In this document: one piece after another, positions 10,926-44,500 of the stretch
Position numbering within the stretch: position 1 is the stretch's first letter
How the letters are laid out: the number at the start of each line of letters is the position of its first letter
NCBI GenBank assembly: GCA_965649765.1
Contig: OZ287748.1
Span: 79,484,001 to 79,548,000 of the forward strand
Length of the DNA: 64,000 nucleotides
DNA from: Bispira polyomma
Lineage: Eukaryota
Direction: 5' to 3'
Notes under the pieces: model-generated
What the model saw: the letters and a program-made list of their open reading frames with translations, nothing else
The model's database searches: none
Told to the model about the DNA's origin: nothing
Made by a program: the position numbers and the translations under genes

Positions 10926-12000
10926 TCGAGGTGAGCCTTAAGGAGCAGGTCCACTGGAATGAGTTTGTTTAAGGTTTCTGGGAACCTCCAGTGGTTCTTC
11001 AGGTGCCATTGTAGAGGTCGCATTTGAAGGCGACCCCCAGGTACTTGTTTTTCTGTTGACGCAAGGAGGCCGATAAGAGACATCCAGAGTCACACAGACA
11101 CCTGAGAGGTGATGAGTATCCGGTTGATCATATCCTGTAGCTTGCACAACCGGTCTGGTGTAGGTAGTACCAGTCCCCTCTGTAGATCGAACTGGTACCC
11201 GACGAAGGTAAAGTTCTGTGAGGGGATAAGTTCCGACTTTTTGTAATTGATGATCCAGCCCAAATCCGTGACGAGGGAGATCAAGGTCTCTGTGCTGGCC
11301 TGGCATTGAGCCGCTGAAGGTGCTCTGATGAGCCAGTCGTCCAAATACTGATGCATCCGAACTCCCAAAGAGAGGGCCATCAGTTTTACTTCCTTGACTA
11401 GTAGAGTGAACTCGTGAGGGGCTGTTGCTAGTCCAAATGGAAGAGCCCTGAACTGGTAGGACTTGCCTCTGTGGTGGAACCTGAGGTATTTTTCAGACCT
11501 GGGGTGAATAGGGATGTGTAGATAAGCATCCGTGAGGTCCAGTGAGGTGACCCATTCCCCCTGTTGTAGGGAGGCCCGGATAGATTCCGGGGTCTCCATG
11601 CGGAATTTGTGGACCTCGAGGTATTTGTTCATAGTACTGAGGTCTATGACCGGTCTCCACCGGTTGCCCGGTTTGGGTACGAGGAAAAGACGACTGGTGT
11701 ATCCCAACGAGTTTGTCTTTTGCACCGGTACGACTGCTTGTTTTGACAGAAGGTCCACCACACAGTTGTGTAAGGCTTAGTCTTTTTCTACTCCTGTGTA
11801 TCCGCTTATGATGTATGGGAACCGGGAGAGGGGAGGTTTTCTCCTGAATGGAAGGGAATATCCTAGTCTTATGATATCCAGTTCTCTTTGGATTATTCTT
11901 TTTGATGTCCATTCGGGCACAAAATGAAGCAAACGCGCCCCAACCCCTAAGGGCGTCTGCTCCGGTGGATTCTCATTTGGATGAGCCACCGCGGCCTCCA
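9917..12000 (-). pseudogene. DIRS Pol: reverse transcriptase, RNase H and adenine-methyltransferase-like domain, with two in-frame stops (11777-11779 TAA, 11090-11092 TGA)
   Basis: VGARL..GYSLPF, RPVIDL, SLDLTDAYLHIPI, ALPFGL, YLDD; RH motifs FTDAS, HINVLEL, TDN, NVIADALSR; MT motifs DMFAT, DAL..W, YCYPP, PGWP..PWF. The three ORF-track pieces share one frame. Confidence 0.93.
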
Positions 12001-21030: not shown

Positions 21031-23526
21031 TTATATCCGGAACTCCTGTTCTGAACCTGAAGAGGCTGGATGAGTGATACTGCCACTGGTTCGCCGAGAT
21101 CTGTGCTGAGCGATACCGTTCTGATGATGATGTGCGAGTAGATTGTGAGGTGTATTCTGGCCTGAACTGCTACTGCCCAGACCCTTGGGGGTGACGATAG
21201 GGCTAAAGGATGGGCTTCTGTGCTGTAGAGGGGAGAGAGAGTTCTCAAACTCTGGGGATAGAGGAGTGGTTGTAAAAGAAGACTCGTAACTCATGGGGGA
21301 TTTAGGAAGACTTGCCATAGAGGTCAGTTGGCTGGTCCGCGCCGAGTTCACAGTTTGATTTGAATTGGACGAGCTTGAGTCTCTGCGTTCTCGCACTTGA
21401 TTGTTTATAACTGGCTTGTGCTGACTAGAAAACATGGGCCGGGCGCGGGGCGGGGCGTCTGTAATGATGGGTGGAGGAAATGCCATGGGCCGCATCTGCT
21501 GCTGGGACGTGTGAAAACCATTCGTATTCTGTGAAACAATTTTGGTGGGTACCTTCTTGGGTTTAATACTGTCGTCTTTAAGTCTTGCTATCTCGGTAAA
21601 CACATCAGCTAGGGGCTGATACTGAGGACCCCAGTCTAATAAGTAGTCCCAGTTATAGGAGCCGCTAAACTCCTCCTCACTGTTGATCACACTGGACAGG
21701 GAGCCAGCGGTGGACTGATCTTGCTCGTGGAAGTTGAACTGGTTGGAGGTTTCTATCACTGGGGCAGCCGTCTCCTCACCCCCTCCTCCTCCTCCTCCTC
21801 CCTCCTGATTATACCCGATGTCCAGCCCGTCACCTTCACCGCCACCCTCATCTGAAAACTGGTGCATGCTCTCCACACTAGCGTTTATATTCTTACCTTC
21901 TGTACCCCCTTTCAGTTTGCTTGCGTCGATACCGAGCCGTGCAAGATACTCTTGATGGTTCTGAGCGGAACGTTCTGATATTGCATCATCGTCTTGCTGA
22001 ATGCCCGAGTCTGGTAAGCGAAGTTCCTGGTGATCCAGCGGAGTGGCATTGATCATCCTGATCTCTTCATCCTCTGGGATATCTATGTCTGCTGATCCCC
22101 GCCCACTGGACATGGAGGTTGAATGTTCCGACATAGAAGATCCGACCATCTGGCCGGGCAGGTGGTGCGGATACATGTGAGCCGCATCGTTGTAAGACGG
22201 CGGTCCGTAGCCTTGAGGGGTGACATGGTCCATGCTGCTATTGAAGGAGCTTTCAAACTGTGCCGGATTGTCCCGTTTATGCTTCCACTTCTCTCTACCT
22301 CTGAGGAACATGACCACAATGGCTACAACTAAGATGGCTGCAATTAGTAAGAAGACTATGACCAGGATGAGTGGCGTGCCTGATAGACCTCCACCTTCTT
22401 GAGGGCTAGCATCTGTGGTGAAAGCACATCCTTCACAGGCACGATCTACTCTTAGGCTCACCACAGTGGTGTCCTGAATACTCTCTGGATACCCTACACT
22501 GGCCACGACAGTCAATACCACCTCATCCTCAGTCAATGCACGGCGCGATCGATTTCTGCTCGATCTTCTCTTGCGAGCAGAATTGTCGGAATTTTGCAAA
22601 TCTTTCTTCACAGATATGATACCGTACATACCGGTAGATGAAGCCCCAATAGCGAAGTACTTATTGGGAGTATCAAAACTAAACTGTACTACGCCGATAA
22701 GATCACTTAAACTGACATCAGATGAGGCACCAGTTATGTCAGCATTCTCCACATCAATAAAGCCCACTTCGTCTCCTTTCTTAGCATTACCCTTAACAGT
22801 GAACTGAAAGTCTGTGTCCACAAACCGGGGTATAAACAGTGGTTCCACTTTGACAACTGCTGGTACTTTGGTGAACCGGCCTCCCGCGTCACTTGCCTTG
22901 ACAAAGAACTGATACTGGGAAGCGTTTCTGTACTCCAACTGTCTAGTAGTGGTAACAAAGCCTGTCCTCGCATCCACCCCAAAAGCACCTTTAGCTTCCA
23001 AAAGCTCATATGTCACAACACCAAACATCCCAGAGTCATCGTCGTTAGCGTGAGCAGAGAACACATAGGTTCCAGCGCCTAGTTTCTCCCGCACTTTCTC
23101 CCAGTACATCATGACGGGGAACCTTGGTGCAAACTCGTTCACATCGGTCACATTGACAATGACTGTGGCAAAGGCCGACTGTTTTGGGTAGAGGATGCTT
23201 GAGTCCATGGCAATCACTGTGAGCCTGTGGCTCTGGTGAGTTTCGTGATCCAGACTGGTACGGAGTTTGATCCAGCCCGTGTCGGAATCAATTTCAAAGT
23301 TATTGTCATCGTTTCCCGAGGCTATCCTGTACTGTACTTTACCGTTGACATTGATGTCTGCATCTGTGGCAATTACTTGTACTATGTGTTCTCCTTTCAG
23401 GTTGTCCTCAGATATGGAGGTGGCGTATTCTTTGGCCTCAAACACTGGTGGGTTATCATTCACATCGGTTACTGTAATACTGACTATAGCCTGAGACTTC
23501 ATTGGGGGAATGCCGCGATCTGACGC
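21031..23526 (-). CDS. ds: dachsous terminal coding exon: last cadherin repeats, TM helix, cytoplasmic tail ending EQEFRI
   Basis: tcttccag acceptor at 23527; ORF track 21031..23616; Ds-specific tail motifs. Confidence 0.95.
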   Translation of the reverse strand, partial: ASDRGIPPMKSQAIVSITVTDVNDNPPVFEAKEYATSISEDNLKGEHIVQVIATDADINVNGKVQYRIASGNDDNNFEIDSDTGWIKLRTSLDHETHQSHRLTVIAMDSSILYPKQSAFATVIVNVTDVNEFAPRFPVMMYWEKVREKLGAGTYVFSAHANDDDSGMFGVVTYELLEAKGAFGVDARTGFVTTTRQLEYRNASQYQFFVKASDAGGRFTKVPAVVKVEPLFIPRFVDTDFQFTVKGNAKKGDEVGFIDVENADITGASSDVSLSDLIGVVQFSFDTPNKYFAIGASSTGMYGIISVKKDLQNSDNSARKRRSSRNRSRRALTEDEVVLTVVASVGYPESIQDTTVVSLRVDRACEGCAFTTDASPQEGGGLSGTPLILVIVFLLIAAILVVAIVVMFLRGREKWKHKRDNPAQFESSFNSSMDHVTPQGYGPPSYNDAAHMYPHHLPGQMVGSSMSEHSTSMSSGRGSADIDIPEDEEIRMINATPLDHQELRLPDSGIQQDDDAISERSAQNHQEYLARLGIDASKLKGGTEGKNINASVESMHQFSDEGGGEGDGLDIGYNQEGGGGGGGGEETAAPVIETSNQFNFHEQDQSTAGSLSSVINSEEEFSGSYNWDYLLDWGPQYQPLADVFTEIARLKDDSIKPKKVPTKIVSQNTNGFHTSQQQMRPMAFPPPIITDAPPRARPMFSSQHKPVINNQVRERRDSSSSNSNQTVNSARTSQLTSMASLPKSPMSYESSFTTTPLSPEFENSLSPLQHRSPSFSPIVTPKGLGSSSSGQNTPHNLLAHHHQNGIAQHRSRRTSGSITHPASSGSEQEFRI

Positions 23527-26500
23527 CTGGAAGACAATATAAAAAGATAGTTGTACAAAATACAAAATGTACATGTATTCACTCAGTAGAATGGTTATAC
23601 CTCCACTAGGCTTCACACTGCCCCAAAAGCGTAAGCCTGCAGAAATGTTTCTTACACTTTTGGGGCATAGCTATGCACTCCAAGAACATTCAATATGTTC
23701 GGCCTTGGCCAATGCCCTATCCGTCCCAAGTTTGGTCAAAATTGGTTCAGTAACTCTTGCCCTTTCCAGCAGGAATTTTTTTTCGACTTTTGGCCCAGCA
23801 ATGCATTGGCAGAGGTATGCACTCTACTATAATGTATTGGGTTTTTTCTTGGTCAATGCCCTAGGCCAAATTTTTTCAAAATTACTTCAGTAGTTTTTTT
23901 TTGTAATCCTATTAACAAACCGCCTCACAAACAGACAAATGTGAAAATGGAGGTAATAACTCAATTACAGCCCAATTACAAAGTATTAATGAATGGTCCT
24001 TGGTTGGGTTTCAACTGTTTCACAGTTTTTAAGACAAATTTTTAAAACTGTAAATCTTTTGAAATTTTTCTATGATATAATCTACTAATAATTGAAACAA
24101 GACACAAAAAGTCTACTCACTTTAATAGCAAGCGTGTACCGAGGTAGAGTTTCCCTGTCTAGACTGCCAATCAACACAAGGTCCCCAGTACTAGAGGAGA
24201 TCTGGAACATGCCGTGTTCATTCCCCGTCACAATACTGTACACCACTTTACTGTTGTCATGTGTGGTGTCTTCATCATGGGCGCGGGCCTGGACAACAGT
24301 GTAACCGGGATGTTCATCTTCACTGATCTCCTCACTGAAAAGATGTATAGAGAGAACTCATTAACAAAAGAGAGACTCTATCAGTAACAGTAAGGCCCCA
24401 GACAACAATGATTATTTTTACTGATTCCCTCACTAAATAGATATAAACAGAGTATTGATGTCTTACCTGGATATACTTTTGGTGAGCTGAGGGGCGTGGT
24501 TATTGATGTCTTACCTGTATGTACTTTTGGTGAACTGAGGGCTGTGGTTATTGATGTCTTACCTGTATGTACCTTTGGTGAACTGAGGGCTGTGGTTATT
24601 GATGTCTTACCTGTATGTACTTTTGGTGAGCTGAGGGACGTGGTTATTGATGTCTTACCTGTATGTACTTTCAGTGAACTGAGGGCTGTGGTTATTGATG
24701 TCTTACCTGTATGTACTTTTGGTGAACTGAGGGGCATGGTTATTGATGTCTTACCTGTATGTACTTTTGGTGAACTGAGGGGCGTGGTTATTGATGTCTT
24801 ACCTATATGTACTTTCAGTGAACTGAGGGCTGTGGTTATTGATGTCTTACCTGTATGTACTTTTGGTGAACTGAGGGGCATGGTTATTGATGTCTTACCT
24901 GTATGTACTTTTGGTGAATTGAGGGGTGTGGTTATTGATGTCTTACCTGTATGTACTTTTGGTGAACTGAGGGGCATGGTTATTGATGTCTTACCTGTAT
25001 GTATTTTTGGTGAACTGAGAGGTGTGGTTATTGATGTCTTACCTGTATGTACTTTTGGTGAACTGAGGGGTGTGGTTATTGATGTCTTACCTGTATGTAC
25101 TTTTGGTGAACTGAGGGGTGTGGTTATTAATATCTTACCTGTATGTACTTTTGGTGAACTGAGGGGGTGTGGTTATTGATGTCTTACCTGTATGTACTTT
25201 TGGTGAACTGAGGGGCGTGGTTATTGATGTCCACCACTTGTACCCTGACCACCTCTACTGCTGACAATGACGGTACTCCTCTGTCCCGGGCTGTCACCAC
25301 TAGGTCTATACTGGGGTTACTGGGGTTGTAACGCACTGTCTGGTTGGTGTAAATCACTCCTGGAAAAACAGGGTCGGTCAAAATCAAAGGCGTTAAACTT
25401 GAGTCACTCATCATTAATCACATGCTATTAAACACTTCTCGACAGAACTTTAAAATAAAACTCTCACAAAAGTATTACGTTACTATTTATATTTTAATGT
25501 TCCAAATATACAAAAATTAATGTAGACAGATAAAGTGAAAATAGCTCAGCATAAAATATTATCTCTAATAAATAAATACACATGTTATATCAATATCTGT
25601 AATCAGCAAAAACACAACCATATCAGTCGATATGCATATTGATAGAATAATTTCAACAACTATGTCTATTACCTGACCAAATAAGCAAGACAATAACTAT
25701 TTAAATCAGAAGTAAATATTGATATATTGGTGAAGCATTTATTTTTCAATAATCATTTAACATCTCTACCTGTCAGATCATCAATGTAGAAGCCTTGTGT
25801 AGATATCATACTGTAACGAACATCTGCATTCTCCCCATCATCAGCATCTGAAGCTGTTACCGTGGTAACCTCAACTTCTCCTGCAGTATCCTCATCTATT
25901 GATACCTAGCAATACAACAGGTATATCTTGGATCACACATTTATCGATATATGATGTCTTGCTTACACCAAAAAGAATGTTATAAATAAAAGTCCCAAAT
26001 CAAATTTATCACCCAACTGCAATATTCCAAGTGGCAAGTTAATAAACAACCTTGTGGACATGGCTGTGTGGACATCTTCAAGCTTTGCTCCTCAATTAGA
26101 AGAATGGCAGGTTAGTGGTGTGTGATAATCACTGCTTGTTTGCTGTACTTGGGCAGTCAAGAGAAGGTAAACTAGTGCTTTGAATAGTCTAAAGCCTCTA
26201 CCGTCCAAACTTTTATCACTCAAAGTTTTAATTTAGGAACTTCTGTTTTGTATTTATTCGCCTCTTCTATTTTATGGATTTCTATTATCTGAACAAAATC
26301 ATGCTCTCCTAACATGTTTTCGATAATGGAGGTTCTACTACACCAGACAATGGTAGATAAATGTACTGAATATAAATTTAAATACAAACACAAATAAAAT
26401 GGAGATAAGCTGATAAGATTGGCCAGTAAACACTGGTGGGTTTAAATTTTAAAAATTCAAAATATTTAAAATAATCCCAATGAACGTTATAGCTAATTGA

Positions 26501-29500
26501 AATCGAGAATAGCTGACATTAGAATTTTACCTGATAAGACTGCTGAGTAAACACAGGTGGGTTGTCGTTCTCATCAGTGACATTGAGGATGACCTCAGTA
26601 CTAACCGTGTGGTTCTTGTCAAACACCTGTACTTTCAGTTTATAAGCCTGTGTGACCTCGTAGTCCAGAGCCTTGGCCACAGAGATCTTACCACTGTATG
26701 GGTCAATACTGAACTGGTCATTGTAGTTACCACCCGGTGAGAAGTCATACTGTAACACTGGGTCCAGGTCCTCATCTGTGGCGGTTACTTGGAGGACAAA
26801 CGTACCGGGCTCTGTGCCTAGAGTGAACACAAGCAGTGTAGTATTGGCATCAACTTGTAACATAGACAGTGTAGTACTGGATTGACTTGTAGCATAAACA
26901 GTGTAGTACTGGCATATACTTGTAACATAGACAGTGTAGTACTGGATTGACTTGTAGTATAAACAGTGTAGTACTGGCATCAACTTGTAACATGGACAGT
27001 GTAGTACTGGCATTAACTTGTAACATGGACAGTGTAGTACTGGATTGACTTGTAACATGGATAGTGTAGTACTGGCATTAACTTGTAACATGGACAGTGT
27101 AGTACTGGCATTAACGTGTAACATAGACAGTGTAGTACTGGCATCAACTTGTAACATAGACAGTGTAGTACTGGATTAACTTGTAACATAAACAGTGTAG
27201 TACTGGATTGACTTGTAACATGGACAGTGTAGTACTGGCATTAACTTGTAACATGGACAGTGTAGTACTGGCATTAACTTGTAACATGGACAGTGTAGTA
27301 CTGGCATTAACTTGTAACATGGACAGTGTAGTACTGGCATTAACTTGTAACAGACAGTGTAGTACTGGCATTAACTTGTAACATAGACAGTGTAGTACTG
27401 GATTAACTTGTAACATAGACAGTGTAGTACTGGATTGACTTGTAACATGGACAGTGTAGTACTGGCATTAACTTGTAACATGGACAGTGTAGTACTGGCA
27501 TTAACTTGTAACATGGACAGTGTAGTACTGGCATTAACTTGTAACATGGACAGTGTAGTACTGGCATTAACTTGTAACATGGACAGTGTAGTACTGGCAT
27601 TAACTTGTAACATAGACAGTGTAGTACTGGATTGACTTGTAACATAAACAGTGTAGTACTGGATTGACTTGTAACATAGACAGTGTAGTACTGGATTGAC
27701 TTGTAACATAGACAGTGTAGTACTGGATTGACTTGTAACATAGACAGTGTAGTACTGGCACTAAGTTGTAACATAGACAGAGTGTTGTATTAGTATCTGT
27801 ACTCAATTTAGGCAAACAATACTGGCATTGTACTCAATGTACGTAAACAGTGCAGTACTGGCATTGTATTTAATGGAGGTAATCAGTGTAATACTATCAT
27901 GGACTTGTACCTAATGGAGGTAAAAAGTACTAGCATTGATTTATGACATAAACAATGAAGTACTAGCATAAATTTGTACTTCATTAAGTTGAATATTATC
28001 ATTAATGTTTAATAATTAAAAATTACATTGTAAGATAAAACAATGTCACTATAATAGAACAGGAATTATAAAATAAAATTCTAGGAAGATGAATTTTTTT
28101 TTTCAACTCAAATATACAGGCAACAGAAGTCAATATTAAAAGACATTTATTTACATTTATCTACACAAGTACAATATCTTCCTGAAAATGTAATCCACAA
28201 TCGTATTAATTAGTATTAATAGATTATATGTAAAACATATACAAGCCAGACGATTCCAAATAACAAGGCTATCAAATAGATAAGAAGTTATTTGATGATA
28301 AATAAAGTGCATGACTTACTTTCTTTTACTGGGACTGGATCATATATTTGGAAAAATGGTTCGTGATCATTGACATCAATGACTTGAATCTTTAACAAAC
28401 AGGTCCCAGTCATTGGAGGTATTCCTGAATCTATCGCTTCAATCTGTGCAACAAATATAACACAATAGTTGTGGATATGTGGTAAATATTGCAAAGAACA
28501 TGAGAATTAATTTGTTTTTTAGTGAAAGGACACACAAAATTTTATATTAACGGAAAGGAACAGCCGTAAAATTCAAATTAAAACGGCTTTAAAACTGATC
28601 TAAAAGTAAGAACATACACATGTGTTTTAATATTATCTGGCTTTATTTTAAGTATGCTCACACCTGAGGTGCTACTGTTTTAAAATATATCAAATCAGGC
28701 CAAAGTATCATACCTCCAGCTTCCATGAGCTGACAATCTCTCTGTCCAAGATGATATTGGTCTTAATGATGCTTGTATTGTTATGGAACACAAAAGCTGG
28801 TTTGGCCAGTCCAATGGTGGCCCCACTTTTAATACTGTAGGTAATTCTCCCGTTCAGTCCAGAGTCAAGGTCAGTGGCACTCACTTGAGTTACGTATGTG
28901 TTCTTGTTGTTACCTAAACAAAATAAAATTTGAATTTATTTGGGTTTTACGTCGCTTTTAACAGCATTGGTCATATTGCAAATTAGTGGTGGGGGAAACC
29001 ACCGAACTGGGGCAAGTACCTTACAAACTTTCTCACATGAAGATTCGATCCCTAGAGGTGAGAGGCCATTATATTGACAATCCCAAAGTAATGGTAAAAC
29101 TACAATTAGTTGTTAAAATAAACACGATAAATTTCTTTCATAAACAAAACGTTATACCACATTAGAGTTTGAACCTACATTTTTACGGTGAATACTTTCA
29201 CATTTAAGTTTATACTTTTTTTCTGCCCTTTAGTACTGTCACAAGATTTCAATAAATGTATTTCATCACCTCAGCCAAGGAAGAAATTGTTTGTTTTTTT
29301 TTGTTTTTTTTTTTTGGTTTGCTTATCACCTGGATTACACATAAAGTACTGAACCAATTTTATGAAATTTGGACCCAGGTAGGATTTTTATTTTACTTTG
29401 TGGCATCTTGGCAGGGATATGCACTCTACTGCTCGCTCTTCTAGTTAGAATTAGTTACTACAAACCTTCCCAGACTGCAGACACGTATCTATCCTGGCTG

Positions 29501-32500
29501 AACCTGGGTGCGTTGTCGTTGACATCTGTCAGATGTACCCACACAGTACAGTAAGCCTTGGCACTTCCAGCCTGTGCCATCACCGTCAACCGCAGCTCAC
29601 GTTTAGTCTCGTAATCCAGTTTATCTTTATCGTTTACAGTAATCAGCCCTGTGTTTTCATGGATGTTAAATTTCTCATCTTCATTGCCACTGGCGAAGCT
29701 GTATCTGACACTACTAGGGGAGGAGGAGACTGCTGTCACAGTAACCACTTCTAAACCAGGGGCTGAACCTTCTGCGATAGACTGGTTGTAATGTGGTCTA
29801 GAGAACTCTGGGGTATCCCCCGACACAGCATTCCCTACAGTGATCTCAACCACACCTGGAAACAAGAGGTTTTGTTGGGTTTGATGGTGCTTTTTAACAT
29901 ATTACAATTGTCAGATTTAATAGTGGAAGAAACCTAGTGCTGAAGCCACTGAGAAACATTGACGTACGGCAAGTATCTTACCAACTTTCCCACACATGAA
30001 AGAACAAACAGGATTCAAACCCACACTGGTGAGAGAGACCAGTGAGTATAAACACACGCTTCTAACCACTATGTCATAAGGTAGAGGGGAATATTCAGAA
30101 CTGTGTTACATTAATAATCACTGCACTACACACACATATAGTTTACCTACTAAAGTGTACTCAAATAATTTACTGTACAAATGTACTCTGCACCTTTGAT
30201 ACATTTATTATCAATTTATGTAATTTACTGCAGCATATCTAAGGCTGAGTTTCAAATTAGGTACATGTACTTTCCTTTTGCACTAAATTGAAATTTAATG
30301 GTGTTAAATGTATTAACTGCTTCATAACAAACAACTGTCATATTGCAAGTTTAACCTAAATTTTATATCTAACGAAAATAGAGGCCTTCCAAATATATTA
30401 CAGTAGAACCTTTAGTAGAACTTATATCATTATCCAAATATTCTAAATTATAAACTTACTTCTACTATCCAAAATTTATATTTTCCTACTGTATGCTAAC
30501 GATAATTGTTAATAGTTCCTATTTCTCTTCATGGGCTTAGTATAATGATCGTCTCTGCTATAATATCATACATTTTAATTTACATTCCCCAGACCTTAGA
30601 TTCACACTTCCCTGTAGTCATCCTGGGCTTAGTACAATGGTCCTCTGCTATAATATCATACATTTTCTTTCACATTCCCCAGACCCTAGATTTACACTAA
30701 CCTGTAGTCTTCCTGGGCTTATTACCATGGTCCTCTGCTATAATATCATACATTTTCATTCACATTCCCCACACCCTAGATTTACACTAACCTGTAGTTT
30801 TTCTAGGCTTAGTACCACGGTCCTCTGCTATAATATCAAACTGGTATTTCTTGGTTTGTAGTGATCCCTTGGTGCTGATCACCCCATCTGTGTCTCCGAT
30901 CTCAAAGAAATCGTTTGATTTAGCAAGTGAATACCTCACTTCAGCATTAACACCAGTGTCCTTGTCTGTGGCTAACACCTGGATTACACAAAGATTACAA
31001 TTATCTGAAGGCCCAAATCTTTCAGTACTTGCTGTAAATAAACACAGGCTAAGATGATCATAACTTAATATTCACAAACAACAAAGACATTGACATACTT
31101 AAACACCTTAAAACCATTTTCTTTCATGATATATATAATAGCATTTCCAGTTCTCTTAAAATCAATTAATTCAAATGTCAAATTTAAATCTATGTAGCAG
31201 ATATCTTTCCATATATATCCGAGTATAAGACCGTCACAAGAAGTTGGCCCTAAGGTTACGAAATCCATGAGCTATTGTCTAGCTTAGTATGATCTAATTC
31301 TTTAATGCATCCCACTCTGTATTCAGGTCAAACTTAAACCCCGTTATACACCACAGTGTATGTAGTGATTAACCCAAAAAACATTGTGAATGTAATGAAT
31401 TCAGTATACAAAATCTTTGTCCATTGTCTTTAGGTCTGGTCAATAATGTGTGACCAAGTTCATCCCACTAATTGGGCTGATAGTAGTACCCTTTTGTAAT
31501 AATGAGATAAGATGATAAATATAGTGACTCAGTCCATCATTACACTGAATACTAACCGTAAGTACACTTGTACCCTGCCCTGTATTCTGTGGAATTTCCT
31601 TGATGTATGGAATCTGTTCAAACACTGGACTGTTATCATTGACATCAGTGATCACAATTTCCACCTCTACTCTCTCAGATCTTGGCCCATATAACCCGCC
31701 GTCTGTGGCGTACACCTCAAAGTAGTAAGTAGCCACTTGCTCTCTGTCAAATAACCTGTAAACAACAATCTTATGTTAATACCATCTGTGGCGTATTCCT
31801 CAAAGTAGTAAGTAGCCACTTGATCTCTGTCAAATAACCTGTAAAGAACAATCTTGTGTTATGCTCTCGGCAAATAATCTATATTTTATACAATGGACAA
31901 CATTAACTTTTTCACATACTGGCCGGCCATCTGATATAGGATAAGCAAGCCAAAATTTGTGCTGTAATGAGCAAAAATTTCAGATATCTAAATCTTGTCC
32001 TTTTTTCAGATATCTAAATTGGCTAACATTAAAACATATATTCCAACCAAGATATACCATATCTTAATCTGGAAATGAAGAAAATTAACTAAACTTTTCT
32101 AAAACATGTACAACATTCCAATAAATGATCACGTTAACAGTACAAGTACAGTACAAGATCTATAAGATGGGTAACCTGATGCTAGCCAGTGTCTAACAAG
32201 AGAACTACTGACCCTGTTGTATTGATCACCCCAGTGGTATTGTCTATAGCAAACAGACCACCAGCATTGTCGTCGATGGAGTAGGCACTGAGAGAATTGA
32301 TTCCTTCGTCTTTATCTGTGGCCTCCATCTGTACTACAGTGGTCCCTGCAGGGTCGTCCTCAGACAGATAAAACTTGTACTCCATCTCCTTGAATACTGG
32401 GTCATTGTCATTGTCATCCAGGACCTGTTAATACAGACAATAGAATGTGTAAACTGTACAAAAAGAACCACTCAAACTTGCAGAGACAAGGATAAATATT

Positions 32501-35500
32501 TCTACTTAAGCAGGATTTCAACTTAATATTGTAAGACTACCTCTATATAAAAGACTACCTATATAAAAGACTACCTCTAAAAAAAAGGGAAATGGAATTA
32601 ACAGCGTTCTACCTAAATGTATTTCATTGTAAATACTACCCCCCTTAGTTCCCTCCCTGTACACCCCGTCATCCTTCCTTATGACCATGGCTATGATTTT
32701 CGGACATCTCTATTTGTTAACTAATTCTGTTGTTGCACTTTGGAAGATTCCTTGCATCAATAAGGAGCATTAAAAATCTACAATACAACACACAACAACC
32801 TGTACATTCCAACTTTAACTAAAGTGTTAATAGAACTACTTACCCTGATATAAACCTGTGTATCTGTAAAGCGTGGGGGATTCCCCCCATCCTGGGCTCT
32901 AAGAGAGAGGTTATAGGAAGCTTTTTTCTCCCTGTCCAGTGGTATACATGCCAGCTTCCCGATGTCTTGGTCAATGCTGAAGTGGCCATCTTCATTACCC
33001 GCTGTACAATACAGTTAACACAGAGTTCATCATATGTGCACGTTATTTTTATCAGGCACAGCCCAATATTGTTTTCATCATAAAAAGGGTGCCACCATCT
33101 TAAAAATATGTAAGGCTTCTATGGATTGGTTGGAAGCAATTGACCCGGCCAAACTGAGGAGTGTCAAATTTATTGTTATCAAGCACAACTCTGAGTTTAT
33201 AGTGGCCATATCAAGGTTAGTTTATTTCACACTGTGCACAGACGTCCTTTTTTAAAAGACAATTATTGTTTACAAAAGTTTATTTTCTTTATTATCATCA
33301 CCATTTGTTATGGGTAATTACATTGTGATATACATTGCATTACAACCTAATGAGAGACAACGCTGTGTGATGCAAAATACATTAAAATTTCATTACTATT
33401 TCAGAATTAATACTTGTAACAAGCCATACCAGTGATGTAATAGGTGATCTTTCCATTCAAGCCTGCGTCTAAGTCCAGGGCTAACATATTGTAGACTGAG
33501 GTCATGCGTGTGTTCTCGGGCACCTCCAACTCACTCACAGTCTCCTTAAACACAGGAGTGTTGTCATTCTGATCTCCAACGGTAACCACAATGGTGCATG
33601 TGTCATACAGGGCAGGAAAGCCACTGTCTCGTACATAAGCTACAAAGAGACACTGCACAACTTAGTGACCCTAAAGCATGTGTTATCATTGTTAGTAGTA
33701 ATCTGTGTCACACAGCTTTGAAACCTCTCAAAGTTTTTTTTTCAAAGAACATTTATTACATTTTACAATTCTGTTACCTGTCACTTTATTTACCTACCTC
33801 TTTCTGGTACAGAAATAAATTTTGCCACAAAACATAAGTCTCATCATACCATAGAAGTATCTAACATGCTTTGTTAAAATTTGTTCTACCTTACTCTCTA
33901 TATAAATCAAATACCAATATCAACTAGAGTACTGCTTTGCAAATGAAAGGAAATTGTTTTTGCAGAGCAAAAACAAAGCGTCCCAATAAGACATTGAGCA
34001 ATTTTCTGCATATACCCTCCGAGCCCAAAATTCTGCCGAAATTGCTCTATCTGGCACCGTTTCCGAGATAAACGCAGAAATTCAAGTTGGCAGCCAAAAA
34101 TGTGGAGAGAGCGATTTTTTTAAAAATTAAAAAAAAAATATTCCCCCAAAAAAAAAAAAAAAATATTCTGAAAATGTCAAAATTTCTCACCATTTCTGAG
34201 ATATTAAGGATTTTTCATTTCCTTTGTTGAGATTGAGGACTTTTGCAAAATTTTGAAAATTTTTAAAAACATTTTATACCCTGTGGGCCCAAAATTCAGC
34301 CCAAATCGCTCTATCTCTCACCGTTTCTGAGATATTAAGGATTTTTCGTTTTCTTTGTTAAGATGGAGGACTTTTGCAAAATTTTGAAAATTTTAACATT
34401 TTTAAAAAATTTTTATACCCTGTGGGCCCAAAATTCAGCCCAAATCACTCTATCTCTCACCGTTTCTGAGATATTAAGAATTTTTCGTTTTCTTTGTTAA
34501 GATGGAGGACTTTTGCAAAATTTTGAAAATTTTAACATTTTTAAAAAATTTTTATACCCTGTGGGCCCAAAATTCAGCCCAAATCACTATCTCTCACCGT
34601 TTCTGAGATATTAAGGATTTTTCGTTTGTTAAGATGGAGGACTTTCACAAAATTTTGACTTTTTTAAAAATTTTGATTTTTTTAAATTTTTTAAAAATTT
34701 TGACTTTTTTAAAAAGTTTTTAAATTTTTTAATTTTTTAATACTGAGTATATCCTCTGGGCCCAAAATTCAGCCGAAATCGCTCTATCTCGCACCGTTTC
34801 CGAGATATTAAGGATTTTTCATTTTCTTTGTTGAGATTAGGATTTTTCCAAAATTTTGACTTTTTTAAAAAAAATTTAAATTTTTTGAAAAATTTTGACT
34901 TTTTAAAAATATTTTGACTTTTTTAAAAAGATTTTTTTAAATTTTCAAAATTTGCCCAAGGTCTACTAGATATATGCCACAAATTTGAAGAGAATCCGCC
35001 CAGTGGTTGCTGAGCTATAGCCAATAGAAAAGGCGGGAGCCGGTGGCCCCTTCCGCGTGAATTGTCTCCTGTATACAACATAAGGGAAATTTTTTTAGTC
35101 ACGCATTTTCAATTGGCTGTAACTCAGCAACCACTGGATGGATTCTCTTCAAATTTGGCACATGTATCCAGTAGACCTTGGGCAAATTTTCAATATACAG
35201 TAGACTCTGTGTAAGTCAATTCACTGTTATTCGATTTTTGGTACATTTCGAACCGAATCTCGTGCACCAACTTTCCTCACTATAAAATCACGGTCTAACT
35301 CGAAAGTTCGAAGCTTATTTTGTGCATAAATCGAACCTAATTTGCTGCCCCAAGTGTGTATTTTACACTAAAAACTAAAGAGATAATTTGAACCAAGCCA
35401 AAAACCTTTGGCAAATATTTGAAAAGGGATTATGACCACGTTTTTTGGAGCCATATTTTATCAATGCGGTCAAAGTTAAACAACAGATTACAGGGCTTTG

Positions 35501-38500
35501 TGTCACACATAAATCAACAGTTACACTAACCTGACCACTGTTTTATCCATCAAAGCCCTTAATTTCCTTTTAAAATCCACCTTTTAGTCATTGTTTTGTG
35601 GATTACATGGGCGCGGCCATGTTTGATCTTGTTGGTGTGATTAACATACGGTATAGCATCCATTATTCTCCCCGTTTCAAATTCAAACGATTGCAATTAA
35701 GGTAAACGACAACTTTCTTTGTTCTTATCATCACAGACTTTACACTTACCAAATATTTGCACATCTGAAGAAACTATTGTTAATCAATGGGATTACCTCA
35801 AATCCAATTAAAAATCACCAGTGTGTATAAAAAGAGGGTAAAAATAAGTCTAAAGTCATTGAGTCTTATAATTTCTATCTGCACTCATCTTTATGATAAC
35901 ATGGCAACTAAAAGGAAAGTGACATCTAAACCAGAAATATCAGGCACTGTTAGAAGTGGAAGGGGGAGGGAAAAAAAAGGATATTGCTGAAAAATATGGA
36001 GTACCACTCAATACTCTCAGCACTTGGATAAAAAATCAAGACAAAATTAAACAGACCTTTCAAAGTGGTCATCAAAACCTATCTAGAAAGAGAGTGAAAA
36101 TCGGAAAATTTGAAGATGTCAGTGCTGCTCTTTTCAAATGGTTTTCAAATAAAATGGAACAGGGTGCTGCTATAAGTGGTCCTCTAATGATAGAGAAGGC
36201 CCAGAAATTTGCTGACGACCTAGGCATTGAGGACTTTAAGTCTTCTCAGGGATGGCTGACCAGTTTTAAGGAGAGGTATAACATCAGGATCAGATCCATC
36301 CAAGGGGAAGAGAGGGCTGTGAAGATACAGGATGTAGATGCCTGGCACCAGACAGTGTGGACGGAAATATTACAGGAGTATCAAGCCAGACACATCTACA
36401 ACTGTGATGAGTCTGGCTTGTTCTACAAGATCCTTCCAAACAGAACACTGGCTTTCAAGGGCCAGAAATGTTCTGGAGGGAAGTTGTCTAAGGATAGGAT
36501 AACTATACTTTTTTGTTCCAATATGGATGGCTCTGATAAGGTGCCACTTCTATGCATTGGGAAATCTAAGAAACCAAGGGCATTCAGAGGTCATCTTACT
36601 CTTCCTACAGAGTACAAAGCCAATGCTAGGGCTTGGATGACCGCTGACTTGTTTAAAGAGTGGCTACAAAAGCTAGACAGTAAGATGGGCCTCCAGCAGA
36701 GAAAGATAGCCCTCTTAATGGACAATTGTGCTGCCCACCCCAAATCTGGGGGCCTGAAGAATATAAAGATGTTTTTCCTGCCTCCTACTTGCACCAGCAT
36801 CCTCCAGCCTATGGACCAGGGAATCATTAGGTGTTTCAAGCATTATTACAGAGCCTCAATCAATAAGAGACAGATTGAGGCTTTAGACAATGGCTCTGCC
36901 TTTAGCCTGACAATGCTGGATGCTCTAAGAGAGTCCCAGCTTGCTTGGGCTAAAGTTTCACAAGAGACCATTGCTAACTGTTGGCTCCATATGGCTTTCA
37001 GGGAACACGAATCACCTAGTGAATTTATCCCACCAAGTGATTCTCTGGTGTCAGGAATATCCAATGAGGACTTCAATGAATATGCAAATATGGACAATGA
37101 GCTGATCACCAGTGATATGCCCACAGATGAGGACATCGTTAAGGATGTAAAAGGACCCGAGGATGAGGAGGACAATGATGAGGATGAGGAGCCCATAGAA
37201 GAGCCTATCCCTTCTCATGATGAAGTAGAGAAGATGTGTCACAAGATGAGAAGATACATTGAGTCTGCAGAGAATGCTAGACAAGAGCTGGACTGTCTAA
37301 CAAAAATTGAGATTTTAGTGACCAAAACGAAAAATAGTTCAAAGAAACAGAGCTCTATATCTGATTTCTTTAAGCATATGTAAAACTGTGACCTCTGTAT
37401 GTTTTCTTAATTTTTTTAAAATTTGTCCACTTTAAACAAAAATGAGCTGTCGACCTTAATTTTAAATATGTAGATTAGAGTAGGGATTCAATTTTGCGTA
37501 AGAGGTATGTTCATAATATGTAAAAGTGCTTGTATAAAGATGTTTTCAGTTGTTTTAGGTGTCCTTTAATGTTTATATGTTGAAACACAATAAAAGTAAT
37601 GATTTGTATGATAAAGTTTATTTTATTTTGCTTTTATTGTTGAGTTTTGCGATAAATCACCTATTATCGCCCATTCACCTACAATCTCCGACGGACTTGA
37701 CACAAAGCCCACGAAAATTATTATTCGAATTTAGCGTAATTCGAACCAATTACCTCGAATTTTTGTGATTCAACTTACACAGAGTCTACTGTAGTGTCAT
37801 TACATTTCGACCAATCAAATAAGTCTTATGACCGAAAATGCGTAAATTTACCTCCTATATACAAACAAGCGCCCTCACGGGATGCTTAATAAGACTTGAT
37901 CTACTGTTAACTTCTACTCAGTTAAACTTAGTATTTAGAATGTTGAGACAAATTGGTCCTTTTTACAAAGAAATTCAACTTATATTGGTTCTAGCAACAG
38001 AGGAGCTACTGTAAACAGATTAAAATGGTTTGGGGAATAGTAGATTTGTGTCCAATTTTACACTGCTTACTGTATGTTTTGAGAATACTTTACCTGTAAT
38101 AATGTACTGCTTCTGTTCTTCTCTGTCTAACGAGACTCTAGCTTTAAGTTCTCCACTATCTGTGTCCAGACTAAACTTGTTGTCCAGCACTCCATCTGGG
38201 ATCAAGTACTTCAGCACAGCGCCATCACCTACATGAATATACAACATACAGAGTACTGTGGTCGGCTGTGGTCAACTAGGTACAGTTCTTCAGGATCCAT
38301 CTTTTCAGATGATCTCCACTTGGACTCAAATCTGAAATACCAAAGAGAAGTTCCAAGACCAATGTTACTACATACAAAGCTGTAAACCTTTGTCAGCCCC
38401 CATATCTGGCCTCACTGTTGTCTTTCAGCAGGCTTACCACGGGAAACAGAATTTCATTATCTTATACCGGGACTAGTAAAACGGATTGGATCCTATGCCT

Positions 38501-41500
38501 TCTCTGTTGCAGCACCTACACTATGGAATAATTTACCAACCAATATATGATCCCAGGAATTCCTATCTGGCTTTAGAATTGACTTTAGGACCCATCTCTT
38601 CACCCTCGCTTACCCTTCATGGAGATCTTTGTCCTCCATTTGACCCTGATAACGAATTTGCTTTGGAAACGGACTATGATTTCTACAACTCTGTCAATGA
38701 TATTGCGCTTTAAAAGATGCCTGGCATCAATTAGGCGTGTCAAAAATCCATCATATCATAATAAAGTTAAGCAAAATCTAATATTTGAATTTAGCACTAA
38801 AAGCTGTATTAAAATTAATGGTTACAAGTATAGGTTACTTCAATGTACAAGAAGCCCTCATTTGAGTAGAGTTTGACCTTGAGTTTTTTAATGGAATAAG
38901 GGCCCAGACATACAAAAATAGTAATGGAATAGATCAAAGGTTCAATGGAAACAACATACATTTCAAAAGAAATATGTTAAAAAATGAGTTTAGTTTTGTT
39001 TGGGTTTAACGTAACAATGCATACAACACACACCTATATCTCGGTCTGATGCCTCGAGAGTAGTTATCAATGAGTCACTGTCTTTATTCTCCATGATTGT
39101 GGCTTCGTACAGTGATTTCACAAACCGCGGGGAGTTGTCATTGACGTCAGCAATATGTGCCTCTAATAGTATGTAGGAGGTCCTTCTTGGTACTCCATTG
39201 TCTCTAGCACTCACGTTTAGCTTGTACACATCAATAGTCTCACGGTCAAGTGGTCTTGCAATGGTCAACAGACCTAAAACATCAAATGGAACAGGGAGCA
39301 TTAGGTACACTCTCTGATATAATTAAGTCAGAATGTTATATTAATGTTTTTACTGCAATAGCGCCTCAATCAATGACCCCGAATAAACATCTGAACTCTG
39401 CAAACCTCAATGGGGGGACATTAACTCGAACTTTAAAAAACTAGGAATGGGATCTTATAAGAAAGTTGTCTTCAGATTAAAATAATCAGGAATATATATT
39501 TAAAGAAAACTTTGGGTGGGCTGTTATGAAAGGATGGGCCTTTCCAGCTTCCAAGAGAGTTTCTTGTATGTTATATATATTTATTCTAAACCTAAACATA
39601 AGCTGAAGCACAATATATCCCCATATCTCAAAACACACATATAAATCAGTACTTCCTTAAAAAGTAACTTCTGTCCTCATTTGTGATTAATACAAAATTA
39701 AGGAATCTTCAGTTTAATTTTTTGAGCTTGCTACATATTTTAAGCTTACTGTAGTGAAATTTTAAGTTTTTTTTCTTTCATCTTTGCCATTAAACATATA
39801 AAATATGAAACTTACTACCGAGTGTATGGATACTTTTTTGATAGCGAGATCAAATCTTACCCATTTTTGGAGATTCAGCACTTTAGAGAAATTTTGTCAA
39901 TTTGCCGCTTTATAACTATGCTTCTATGAGAACAATTAGAAAACATGTACACTAAGAAAAACAGAGTTCATTCTACCTGTGTTTGTTTGCAGACTGAAGT
40001 GTCCCAAATCATTTCCAGACACAATAATGTACGAGATAGCCCCATTTTCACCCGAATCTCTATCAGTAGCAATCACATTCAGCACAGGGAAATGTAGGGG
40101 TTCATCTTCTAATATGTCAACACGACTCATTTCCTGGAACATTGGGCTGTTGTCATTACGATCTTCAATCTCCACTAAAGTCGTGACAGTAGAAGCGCGC
40201 ATCTGAGCCGGATCCCCAGGCTGGTCAGATGCTTTGATCACTAGACTAATTAATCTGATTTCCTCAAAGTCAAGAGGATGGAGAGTGATTAAGTCACCGG
40301 TAATTCTATCAATTTTAAACCAGGCTTCATTCGGCGACTGGGAAAGGATCTCATAATGAACTTGTCCAAAGCTTCCACTGTCCAGATCTGTGGCACTGAA
40401 TGTGTGAACGATGGTATTATTAGGAACATTCTCTCTGACTGTGAAAATCACTGGATCGTGTTCAAATATTGGCGTATTGTCATTGACGTCGGTTATGGTG
40501 ATATTTACATTGATGATGCTACTTTTGGGGTTAGTTGGATTGCTGTCTAGAGCCCGAATCTGTAGTGAATGGTGGGCACTCTCCTCATAATCCACAGGTC
40601 GTGCTATAACTATGGCTCCCGTCGTGGAATTGACAAGAAATACTGCAAACTTATTCCCTCCGATGATGTAGTAGGTCACTGTGTCACTGCTGTCCCCATC
40701 ATTAGCTTTTACATGGGCCACTGTGCTGTGAACAGACATGTCTTCTCGGATAGTTAACGACAAGTGGGCATCCTCAAACGTGGGTTCGCTTTCATTCTCA
40801 TCGTTAACAGAGACGATCACCGTGGTACCCGCTTGTAGAGGTACAACTCCCTGATCACGAACAACCACGTCAATTTCAAACGTTGACCTCTTCTCATAGT
40901 CAAGGACATCCCTTGTAGTGATCTTGCCCGTACTAGGATGGATATAGAAGTTTTCAAACACGTTTTCTTCATTGGTGTCATCAAAGATGAAGCTCAATGT
41001 AGCATTTTCTCCCTTATCAGGGTCTGATGCCGACACCGTGACCACTTCAGTCCCTTTGGCCTGGTTCTCGTCTATGTCCACCGCATAGTTACCGTTACGG
41101 TCAAACGTGGGATTGTTGTCATTCACGTCCAGAACTTGTACAACGACCTTGACCTCCGAAGCTCTGGATGGACTTCCTGAGTCGACGGCTCTAACTGTAA
41201 GTATGTGTACTTCTATGCTCTCTCTGTCCAAAGGCATCTTTGTGTGGATAATACCACTACTGCCCGCGACACGGAAGTAATCGCTATGAACAGACAGGCT
41301 GTACTGTATGCTATCGGACTCATCGCGATCGGAAGCAGACACTGTTCCCACGATACTTGACCCGTCCAAGTTTTCAGCTATGTAAAACAGATATTCATCT
41401 TCCACAAATATGGGACTGTTGTCATTGATGTCTAAGACTGTGATCACTACGGAAGCTGAGGATGATTTGGAGGGGACCCCTCCATCTACAGCTACCACCT

Positions 41501-44500
41501 CTAAAGTGTAAGAATCCTGGTTCTCTCTGTCTAGTTCCACCTTATTGTAGATACAGCCGTCATTAGGGAAGATACCAAACGTATTGGAATAGGCCCCAGC
41601 CGTCAATTTGTAAGTAAGTCTTGCATTGTTTCCCAAGTCAGCATCAGAGGCGCTGATGTTTGCAAATTTTGTGTTCACATCTGCAGATTCCGCAACACTA
41701 GCATAATATATGTCTTGACGAAACAAGGGTTTGTTATCATTCACATCTTGAACTTGAATATTCACCAATACCTCGGAGGTTTTCTGCGGACTTCCTTTAT
41801 CTTTGGCTCTGACTGTTATCACATGGGTCGCTTCACTTTCGTAATCCAGAAACTTTTTGAGGGAAAGTTCGCCTGAGATGGAATCCACCTGAAATGTGCT
41901 GGAGGTGGGCACCAGTTCATACAGGACCACGCCATTGTTTCCACTGTCTCTGTCATCAGCATGGAGTGTGTAGATGGGGATAAATGGGCCCACATCTTCC
42001 TTGACAGGGATGGTCAGTGGGTTGAGAGGAAACTCTGGAGAGTTGTCATTAACATCGTCAATAGTCACATTGACCTATCGAGAGATACAATATACATGTT
42101 TATTTATACTTGATTCCTTTCAGTTTTACTTTGTTTATTACCCATTGAAATATTTCATTTCTTATAATAAGATGAAGATTCAATTTCACCCATCACTGTG
42201 CAAAAAAAGAAGACATTTACAAAAGCAAGAAAGTCATGCTTTTTTATGATTCACATACTTTTTTTCTGATCAGTGGTCTAGGTTTATCAACAATAAAAAC
42301 AAAACAACCACACAATTAACACACTAAAAGTTTCTTCACACAAAAAAAGTAAAAGAGACGCTGTTATTGCAACATTTTTTACCTTTAACATTAGGTTTTG
42401 TACAACGTAGAGAATGAATATTAAAATATGAGCTATTTAGTAGATATTGAAGTAGCTAATACAAAACCTCTATTATCTAAACATGTTGGGAGAGCAAGAT
42501 TTTGTTGGGATAATAGAATGTTCGTAAAAAACAGAGGTATTTTAGTATAGAAAATAAAATTTGGAAGAGTAAAACTCTGTTCATAAAATTGAATATTAGG
42601 AAAATAGAAGTTCAGTTGATAAAGGTTTTTAATTTTTGTAAACAGATTTTCACATTTTAACAGACTGACTACTCACATGAGCGAATCCATAGTACAAGAA
42701 ATCAGAAGGCTGAGCTTGAATATTGAGCAACACAAATGGTGTAGTGTCGTGATCTAGTGCCTTGACAACCTTTATCTCTCCACTTGATGTAATACTAAAA
42801 TATGCATCTGGATCCCCTGATTCTATGCTATACGTCATAGCACTTGATGCTGAAAGTAATGGACATTTCATATAAACTACAGTCAAGTCTGTGTATGCAA
42901 CCATCTCTCTATTAAACTACAATGGAAAAGTCCCTAATCTACGTTTGATTTATTCTAATGCTCTATTCAAACATGTATGACAAGAATTTCACAAGTTTTG
43001 GTGTTATAACAAAGCTAACATTCTCTTACCATTTTGATAGTCACACAGTATACTTATTACAGATTGAATTTAAGAAAGAAATATTTCACTTTTTATTTAC
43101 CACTAAACTCTCCCTATAAAATCCCAAGGGTTTAAGAATGTAGTTTTTAGTTCAAAAGTTTAGGTCACATGAGTGTACAGAAAAATTGTGGGTGGGTTTA
43201 TTGAGAATGCATGAGGTAGTTTTCTTTAGGGCACCAAATTGGAAAATTATGAGGAAAACGTAATTAGACCAAAGTTATTGTTTTGATGAAGTGAATTAGT
43301 ATTATAGGGGATAATGCAAGATTTTAACTACAAACTGAATCGCTAGTTTCCCTTTTAAAACAAATTCAGCTCAAATTTGAGCAACCAGGAGTTTTGACAC
43401 ACCCCTAATTTTCTTACAAACTGTTAAAAGATTACTTACAGCCAGAGTAGTGAGCCAATACTGTGCCCACTGTACTGTCTACAGATCGATCCTCATCCAC
43501 TCTGAATTCGTACAACTGCTGGGTAAAGATGGGACGAGCCTGGGAGGGGTCAGCCACATTGACCTGAACCATGGCATTGCTTAAACTGGTCAAACCTCCT
43601 CCATCTTCTGCACTGACCGTCAGAGTAAAGCTAGTATCTGAGGAACTAAATGTACCAATCAGCTTCACTAAACCTAATAAATACACGTAATAACCACTAG
43701 TTGAAGATAACAGTTATAATCACAAGTAAATACATCAGAAGAGTGCCCATTTGACAAACTTCAAATCTGCTGAAACATTTAAAGATAATGGTTGATTCAG
43801 CCTTTTCGTTCGATACTCATATTACCACCATCTGTCGCTCTTGCTATTACCACATACGCGACATCAAAATAATCAGAAACCACCTGTCCATGGACACAGC
43901 GATAACTGTGGCAAATGCCCTTGTGAGTAGCCGCTTCGACTACTGCAACTCTCTTGTACGGAGCAACAAGTCACACATTAAAAAGCTCCAGTCCATCCAA
44001 AACTAACTATGTAGGGTCATTTTTCGCCTGGGTTGTCGCACAGACGTCACTCCTTACCTCAAAAAATTACCCTGGCTGCCCATTAACTCTCGCATTTTGT
44101 TCAAGATTCACGTTACTACATTTAAGGCTGTAGTCACTCAACAGCCCCCCTACCTTGCCTCCCTTCTTTCCTTCAGTAATGGCAAGAGAGGCAACAGACT
44201 CTCCGTCACTTCGGTCAGACCAATCAGAAAGGCGGGATTCAGAGCGTTCTCCACAGCAGCTCCACGGTTATGGAACAGTCTCATAATCAACCTCAGATCA
44301 GTTGACACACGTATCGGTTTTAGGAAAAAGCTTAAAACCTATCTTTTTAATCTTGCCTACCCTCCTTAGCTTCCCTCGTGCACGCTCCCACTTCCTTCCT
44401 TACGACTTTGCAATGTCCATGAACTTAATGATTGGACCAATGATTCTGCTGTTGCGCTTTAGAAGATGCCTAGCATCAATAAAGCGCGTTTAAAATTTAT

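Follow-up and report, generated by a model that had tools for sequence, protein, structure and literature searches.

Boundary-spanning duplications in a dachsous gene, including a 16-copy array of splice donors at the end of exon 18

Minisatellite-like tandem duplications that span exon boundaries have been described in amphioxus, where they are called mirages (Adh3, the globins BflGb6 and BflGb9, TnC, and PGBD5; PMC3087553 and PMC3902484, in the portions available). Their units measure 10 to 160 nt, donors as well as acceptors are hit, several cases occur per genome, and many units keep the AG or GT. They are reported to vary between haplotypes and to leave normal splicing undisturbed. The amphioxus evidence comes from RT-PCR; the precedents in which splice-site selection was addressed by experiments are all mammalian. 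In the 37-bp minisatellite of F7 IVS7, the first unit spans the donor and identical pseudo-sites follow downstream, which raises the question of how the upstream site is chosen. According to the available part of PMC1557585, only the authentic donor is used in F7 IVS7, LMNB2 (100-nt unit), and PDGF (81-nt unit). F7 minigenes with 1 to 12 monomers used the first donor only, the choice remaining unchanged throughout, and only downstream sites with a perfect consensus competed. In two further cases from the same source, 6-16 (25 pseudo-sites) and CBS (15–20 units), two pseudo-sites, namely the next two, are used besides the authentic donor. The CBS repeat is the 31-bp VNTR of intron 13, c.1444_1467+7(16_21), present in 16–21 copies, and a second CBS variant, 844ins68, duplicates an intron/exon junction while the mRNA stays normal (PMC2630376, as excerpted). 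In HeLa assays, two strong donors at least 45 nt apart gave ~100% splicing to the downstream one (PMC3413131, as excerpted), and the length of the intronic VNTR of ABCA7 is reported to track splicing and expression (PMC6660495). An earthworm gene is described as carrying whole-exon duplications that are absent from its transcripts (PMC12783039), and the part of PMC10078293 available to us does not discuss boundary-spanning units. Beyond chordates, our targeted literature searches returned no annelid mirage under that name; most subscription journals lay outside their coverage, and absence from print is not claimed.

The dachsous gene and its surroundings

The window, that is, the whole stretch of DNA analyzed here, is 64,000 nt long. 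A tblastn search with the Dachsous (Ds) proteins of Lingula and Mercenaria placed colinear exons between 46.6 kb and 21.0 kb, in descending order. Fixing the GT-AG sites yielded 20 exons and a single 2,760-aa open frame with one terminal stop, with exon 18 spliced at the first of its donors (donor 1). The model is 35–46% identical to 16 Ds homologues over nearly its whole length, with the best matches in Owenia and Lingula, and contains a colinear cadherin-repeat ectodomain, a transmembrane helix, and a Ds-type cytoplasmic tail. These results agree with the first-pass annotation, which had identified the gene as dachsous (ds). Among the Dachsous/DCHS protocadherins, the protein itself is ordinary, and the distinctive feature of the locus is noncoding. 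The elements of the window on which the description draws are as follows.

21031..46606, minus strand: dachsous gene, 3' 20 exons, 2,760 aa, from tblastn and the open-frame model; its 5' part was not found in the window
25188..25359, minus strand: exon 18, 172 nt, from the open 20-exon model and tblastn to Lingula Ds 2391-2447; its last 44 nt form the first unit of the array
24121..24334, minus strand: exon 19, with the real acceptor CAG at 24337-24335
21031..23526, minus strand: last exon, encoding the final cadherin repeats, transmembrane helix, and Dachsous cytoplasmic tail
9009-13817, minus strand: retroelement with Pfam matches to reverse transcriptase (11093-11776), RNase H (9920-11089), and tyrosine recombinase (9009-10937) in separate frames
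35923-37383, plus strand: 486-aa frame with CENP-B_N, HTH_Tnp_Tc5, and DDE_1, inside dachsous intron 7 on the opposite strand

In a quick tree of 19 rows, the model groups with Owenia, the sole annelid included (SH-aLRT 98), and the host lineage is probably annelid. When the opening 620 residues of six full-length Ds homologues were compared with the region between 46651 and 64000, nothing matched; either the 5' exons are separated from the rest by an intron longer than 17 kb and fall outside the window, or they escaped detection. The alignment to the 16 homologues runs across the exon 18/19 junction of the model without requiring a gap. Thirteen of the 16 homologue rows are gap-free over the columns shown around it, and in two the gaps come later. 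In the Ds of Mya arenaria (P0006), a 17-residue gap begins exactly past the junction, which hints, from this one gene model, at an intron in the corresponding place in bivalves. No same-species transcript-derived protein across the junction was found, the best match among longer proteins being 48% identical. One 816-aa protein (P0121), about as long as the last exon would encode by itself, shares 87% identity with the product of that exon, and thus the assembly of a close relative exists.

In the retroelement, whose layout, we presume, resembles that of DIRS-type retrotransposons, the Pfam-matching frames come after a 614-aa frame without a Pfam match. The 486-aa frame is one that we take to be a pogo/Tigger-like transposase. 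Intron 7 also harbors repeats with 139-nt and 264-nt periods (34008-34945), and a repeat of comparable period (140–144) lies in intron 19 (23726-23896).

The array of donors at the end of exon 18

TRF detected a boundary-spanning minisatellite at 24453-25231 on the minus strand (period 48, 16.2 copies, 93% matches). Its unit consists of the last 44 nt of exon 18 (25231-25188) plus GTAA, and we located 16 GTAAG donors on the minus strand, the first G of the first lying at 25187 and that of the last at 24466. The earlier proposal of 16 tandem splice donors built from an exon end was thus confirmed, as was the claim that each copy regenerates the donor: 15 of the 16 read CAG/GTAAGA and unit 9 reads TAG/GTAAGA (the slash marks the exon–intron boundary).

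25187, 25138, 25090, 25042, 24994, 24946, 24898, 24850, 24802, 24754, 24706, 24658, 24610, 24562, 24514, 24466, minus strand: G positions of the donors
24453-24462, minus strand: 10-nt partial unit GACATCAATA, a pre-existing microhomology or the stump of a 17th unit

The array belongs to the known class of boundary-spanning minisatellites by three structural features. It is a head-to-tail repeat whose first unit straddles the exon-18 donor with 44 exon and 4 intron nt; its 48-nt unit falls within the size range of the amphioxus cases; and AG/GTAAGA is present in all 16 units, so the copies reiterate the splice signal. Compared with the amphioxus mirages, the gene here is a lophotrochozoan dachsous with five affected boundaries, while the length polymorphism and normal splicing are those of the amphioxus reports (PMC3087553, PMC3902484, as available). 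The CBS VNTR likewise combines an exon end with the first intron bases and carries a donor in each copy; it differs in being polymorphic and in the use of two pseudo-sites, whereas the dachsous unit is 48 nt long and has a stop inside the donor itself (PMC2630376 and PMC1557585, in part). The contrast with F7 concerns both composition and strength. Intron sequence makes up most of the F7 unit, which includes 4 exon nt, and its weak donors (consensus value 74) follow one another at 37 nt (PMC1557585, in part), whereas the dachsous unit is mostly exon and its near-consensus donors are 48 nt apart. With 8 of 9 consensus positions matched, each of the latter shares the top rank among the 19 donors of the gene.

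The 16 units comprise 13 distinct sequences with a mean identity of 93%. Relative to the exon copy, we counted 16 distinct substitutions, 14 of which are transitions, and the two commonest (found in 3 and 9 units) are both decay products of a single CpG. Several variants are common to nonadjacent units (9 and 12; 6, 8, and 11; 13 and 16). The outermost unit 16 has two private changes, and the internal unit 9 is equally divergent. Unit 2 measures 49 nt owing to one extra C. The array is known from one haplotype in one assembly. This, together with the position of the extra C in a homopolymer, leaves some room for an assembly artifact, and the exact copy number could be off. The 13 distinct units, the transition bias, the variants in nonadjacent units, and the decayed sister copies nearby (see below) nevertheless make an artifact hardly credible. 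Because distinct units and a transition bias are unlike a simple assembly duplication, the array looks like an aged biological minisatellite rather than an assembly echo.

We also considered whether the array is coding. Long open frames at 24381-25172 (minus) and 24412-25179 (plus) differ from the exon frame, and the array was rejected as coding sequence or alternative exon. The minus frame had no match among 8000 candidates scored in protein collections. The plus frame had 100 matches (E up to 0.001, 15–58% identity, none below 1e-30), which, read from the match table alone, appear to be generic repeat matches. Neither an orthologous array nor a matching repeat frame was found in the protein collections searched, a point of little weight.

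Sister duplications and the origin of the array

Copies of splice boundaries are not confined to exon 18, a point that the first-pass annotation had not raised. In the union of two scans, 5 of the 38 exon boundaries have an adjacent copy, on donor and acceptor sides both. The exon-end query flagged four (the exon-11 acceptor and the exon-12, exon-16, and exon-18 donors); the ungapped boundary-spanning scan also flagged four, with the exon-19 acceptor in place of the exon-16 donor.

30526..30838, minus strand: exon-12 donor sister array, 90 nt x 3.5; of its donors, the second is preserved (30701) and the third has GG for GT (30611); terminal stump
31702..31861, minus strand: exon-11 acceptor sister duplication, 83 nt x 1.9; the upstream copy of the acceptor is intact, and its use would give a frameshift
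26380..26442, minus strand: exon-16 end copied at period 121 and decayed; duplicated donor gone through an 18-nt deletion
24394..24459, minus strand: exon-19 acceptor and beginning of the exon, copied at period 98 and decayed; identity 49 of 66 aligned nt, with one gap of 11 nt

The copy of the exon-16 end is not matched in score by any of 3646 window stretches, nor is that of the exon-19 acceptor by any of 5000 shuffles or 2656 window stretches. Both acceptor copies (exons 11 and 19) keep their AG, and their use would yield stops. CBS 844ins68, in which a junction is duplicated and the mRNA is normal, offers a model for them, with the difference that it is a two-copy human polymorphism without an expanded array (PMC2630376, as excerpted). 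Two of the five boundary duplications have lost a copied donor, namely the third donor of exon 12 and that of exon 16. As the exon-18 array is the largest of five boundary copies, a recurring mutational process is favored over a device special to exon 18.

Enrichment at boundaries is borderline. Of nine short duplications counted in the gene, five cross a boundary, compared to ~1.8 expected (P=0.016, or P=0.061 when the focal array is left out), values that rest on rough ancestral intron lengths and on a census from which an internal cluster of exon 5 was left out, being attributed to cadherin paralogy, and in which one cluster was entered as two events. Per position, a score of at least 18 was reached at 4 of 38 boundaries versus 22% of 400 intron-interior positions, so there is no enrichment over intron interiors when arrays are counted; outside arrays, 2.9% of 310 such positions reached this score. 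A separate minisatellite (33 nt x 29; 26834-27780) ends 16 nt before the exon-16 acceptor, with a decayed flank to ~27979. We rejected it as an exon-derived repeat, the similarity not being significant (z=-0.1).

As for the origin of the exon-18 array, GACATCAATA opens the unit within the exon, where it covers the DIN codons (25231), and recurs past the outermost donor (24462-24453). The first-pass annotation had reported both occurrences, which we found in place, and had explained the array by slippage between them. This part stands less firmly. A pre-existing 10-nt microhomology could have allowed slippage, but a decayed exon-19 acceptor copy adjoins the array, and so the 10 nt may instead be the deletion stump of a 17th unit, like the ~45-nt stump that ends the exon-12 array. 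The exon-11 duplication has no comparable overlap. Without its 15 extra units, intron 18 is 132 nt long, of which 24459-24394 is the decayed acceptor copy abutting the array edge; after removal of the 98-nt duplication as well, 34 nt remain, compared to 270–4454 nt in the other 18 introns. From this difference, most of the original start of intron 18 seems to have been deleted. The birth of the intron itself from a duplication (AG/GT model) was rejected, since the spliced junction reads AG/TG and the real acceptor comes with a pyrimidine tract of its own.

Together, these observations point to a history in which a short tandem duplication would have straddled the exon-18 donor, the first copy leaving the exon whole and the extra copy landing in the intron, where it would have escaped purifying selection because of its placement. 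Unequal exchange or slippage, suggested by the shared variants, may then have grown the unit to 16 copies, followed by drift with CpG decay, and the same duplication process would have struck four other boundaries of dachsous.

Choice among the donors and its consequences

With AG/GTAAGA in 16 of 16 units, the cell does face 16 near-identical donors, as had been suggested. Only donor 1 keeps the full-length 2,760-aa frame.

25184..25186, minus strand: in-frame TAA within donor 1 (AG/G TAA), retained by use of any downstream donor

The first-pass annotation had predicted that donors other than the first retain AGG TAA in frame and truncate the protein before the last cadherin repeats and the transmembrane helix, and the translations bear this out: the products of donors 2, 3, and 16 each end at model residue 1858, and those of the remaining downstream donors do so too because the TAA precedes all of them. 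Beyond that residue, the full-length model has another three or four cadherin repeats, the membrane-spanning helix at ~residue 2315, and the tail, all of them missing from these products. The distance from the stop to the last junction ranges from 259 nt with donor 2 up to 931 nt with donor 16. A stop at such a distance is the standard configuration for nonsense-mediated decay (NMD). By position, transcripts from donors 2–16 should trigger NMD, in line with one of the two outcomes originally proposed.

The other outcome, a secreted ectodomain, fared worse. Intron 18 was searched for AATAAA and ATTAAA, and both are absent; its poly(A)-like variants are AATAAC in 15 units, a single AGTAAA, and a single AATACA. 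Intronic polyadenylation was rejected on this ground, and a stable secreted form is left without support by the combination of absent signals and an NMD-type stop. The stop does come just past a cadherin linker, so the fragment could fold, and GT is kept in all 15 extra donors, as a selected knob for ds dose would have it. This retention is, however, within chance: sparing of the donor 9-mer (P=0.15) and of the GT columns (P=0.47) was not significant in these low-power tests. The sister copies in dachsous are decaying, the protein collections held no matching repeat frame (a weak argument), and our literature search for a secreted Ds isoform gave nothing evidently relevant. We therefore consider a selected knob, or a secreted ectodomain ending at residue 1858, very improbable. 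The units behave like freely drifting sequence: six of the 16 substitutions are synonymous in the exon frame, compared to 14 of the 42 transitions that are possible, and there is no sign of selection on the donors at this low power.

On balance, the array is probably a tolerated and essentially neutral mirage. By the precedents of F7, LMNB2, PDGF, and amphioxus, the spliceosome would take the most upstream donor; donor 1 is the first to be transcribed, would define the 172-nt exon together with the upstream acceptor, and is presumably the one used in vivo. Any leak to donors 2–3 would carry a stop at least 259 nt before the last junction and be destroyed by NMD. The strong donors at 48-nt spacing, the 15 of 15 intact extra GTs, and the lack of a fold that hides the copies speak against this reading. 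RNA structure masking the donors was rejected, as 84 of 100 shuffles fold as well (z=+1.07). Since the array combines strong donors with a spacing of at least 45 nt, as in the HeLa assays, a small leak into NMD is plausible.

A larger leak would make the array an unselected splicing QTL: U1 would sit on several strong donors simultaneously, a sizeable share of transcripts would be spliced downstream and degraded, and longer alleles would give less full-length ds as a by-product, as with the CBS VNTR. The latter is said to have been linked to CBS activity by Lievers in 2001. The spacing and strength of the donors satisfy the condition for downstream preference (PMC3413131), CBS shows the same anatomy (24 exon plus 7 intron nt, 16–21 copies; PMC2630376) with two pseudo-sites used, and ABCA7 VNTR length tracks expression and exon skipping (PMC6660495), each as far as the source is available. 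Against this stand the F7 minigenes, in which site choice was the same from 1 to 12 monomers (PMC1557585, in part), and the persistence of the array for long enough to reach a mean unit identity of 93%. The reported leak, moreover, reaches the nearest two sites only, and copy number beyond three should thus matter little. Taken together, we judge such a QTL unlikely.

Two further mechanisms were weighed. In one, which appears quite improbable, the element is neutral and the copies are silenced as latent 5' sites by reading-frame surveillance instead of by position; stress, for example heat shock, would then activate them. Such suppression at latent sites has been proposed for mammals and is not known from annelids. 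Here, the TAA at 25186-25184 precedes the consensus donors 2–16, so all 15 copies correspond to the definition of latent sites (PMC3510495, in part), but F7 pseudo-sites that keep the frame open are likewise unused (PMC1557585, in part). In the other, each CAG/GTAAG would act as acceptor and then as donor, and the array would be removed stepwise to give the same mRNA. Every unit does offer AG/GT with a strong donor. The 20 nt before the AG are, however, only 45–50% pyrimidine in the three units checked, compared to a range of 50–80% for the 19 real acceptors, and the AG comes after two others within the unit; the units checked lack the strong polypyrimidine acceptor that a recursive site combines with a donor. 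Recursive splicing or resplicing is accordingly a most improbable explanation.

The principle of tuning by repeats is not new, as CBS and ABCA7 are human precedents. In the human F7 array, moreover, the outcome that the first-pass annotation had named as contrary to its proposal, use of the first donor whatever the copy number, was obtained with 1 to 12 monomers (PMC1557585, in part). A joint reading, which we regard as a long shot, would combine a real bias that creates or keeps splice-site duplications, extending mirages to an annelid-like lineage, with an exon-18 array that leaks according to copy number, so that the VNTR would set Dachsous dose heritably through NMD; alternatively, the leak would be fully suppressed in a setting where the downstream site wins in HeLa assays, which would expose a position-first rule of donor choice. 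The array is a natural substrate for asking how the spliceosome chooses among equally strong donors, as their strength and spacing fall where two rules disagree: the most upstream donor according to F7, and the most downstream one according to the HeLa two-site assays at 45 nt or more. Because decoy donors and acceptors lie beside the real ones, the locus is also a warning for gene annotation. If copy number changed ds output, the array would be a heritable dial on a gene of planar polarity and growth; if the neutral reading is true, it would be an ordinary tolerated repeat, one more mirage in a lineage for which our targeted searches returned none under that name.
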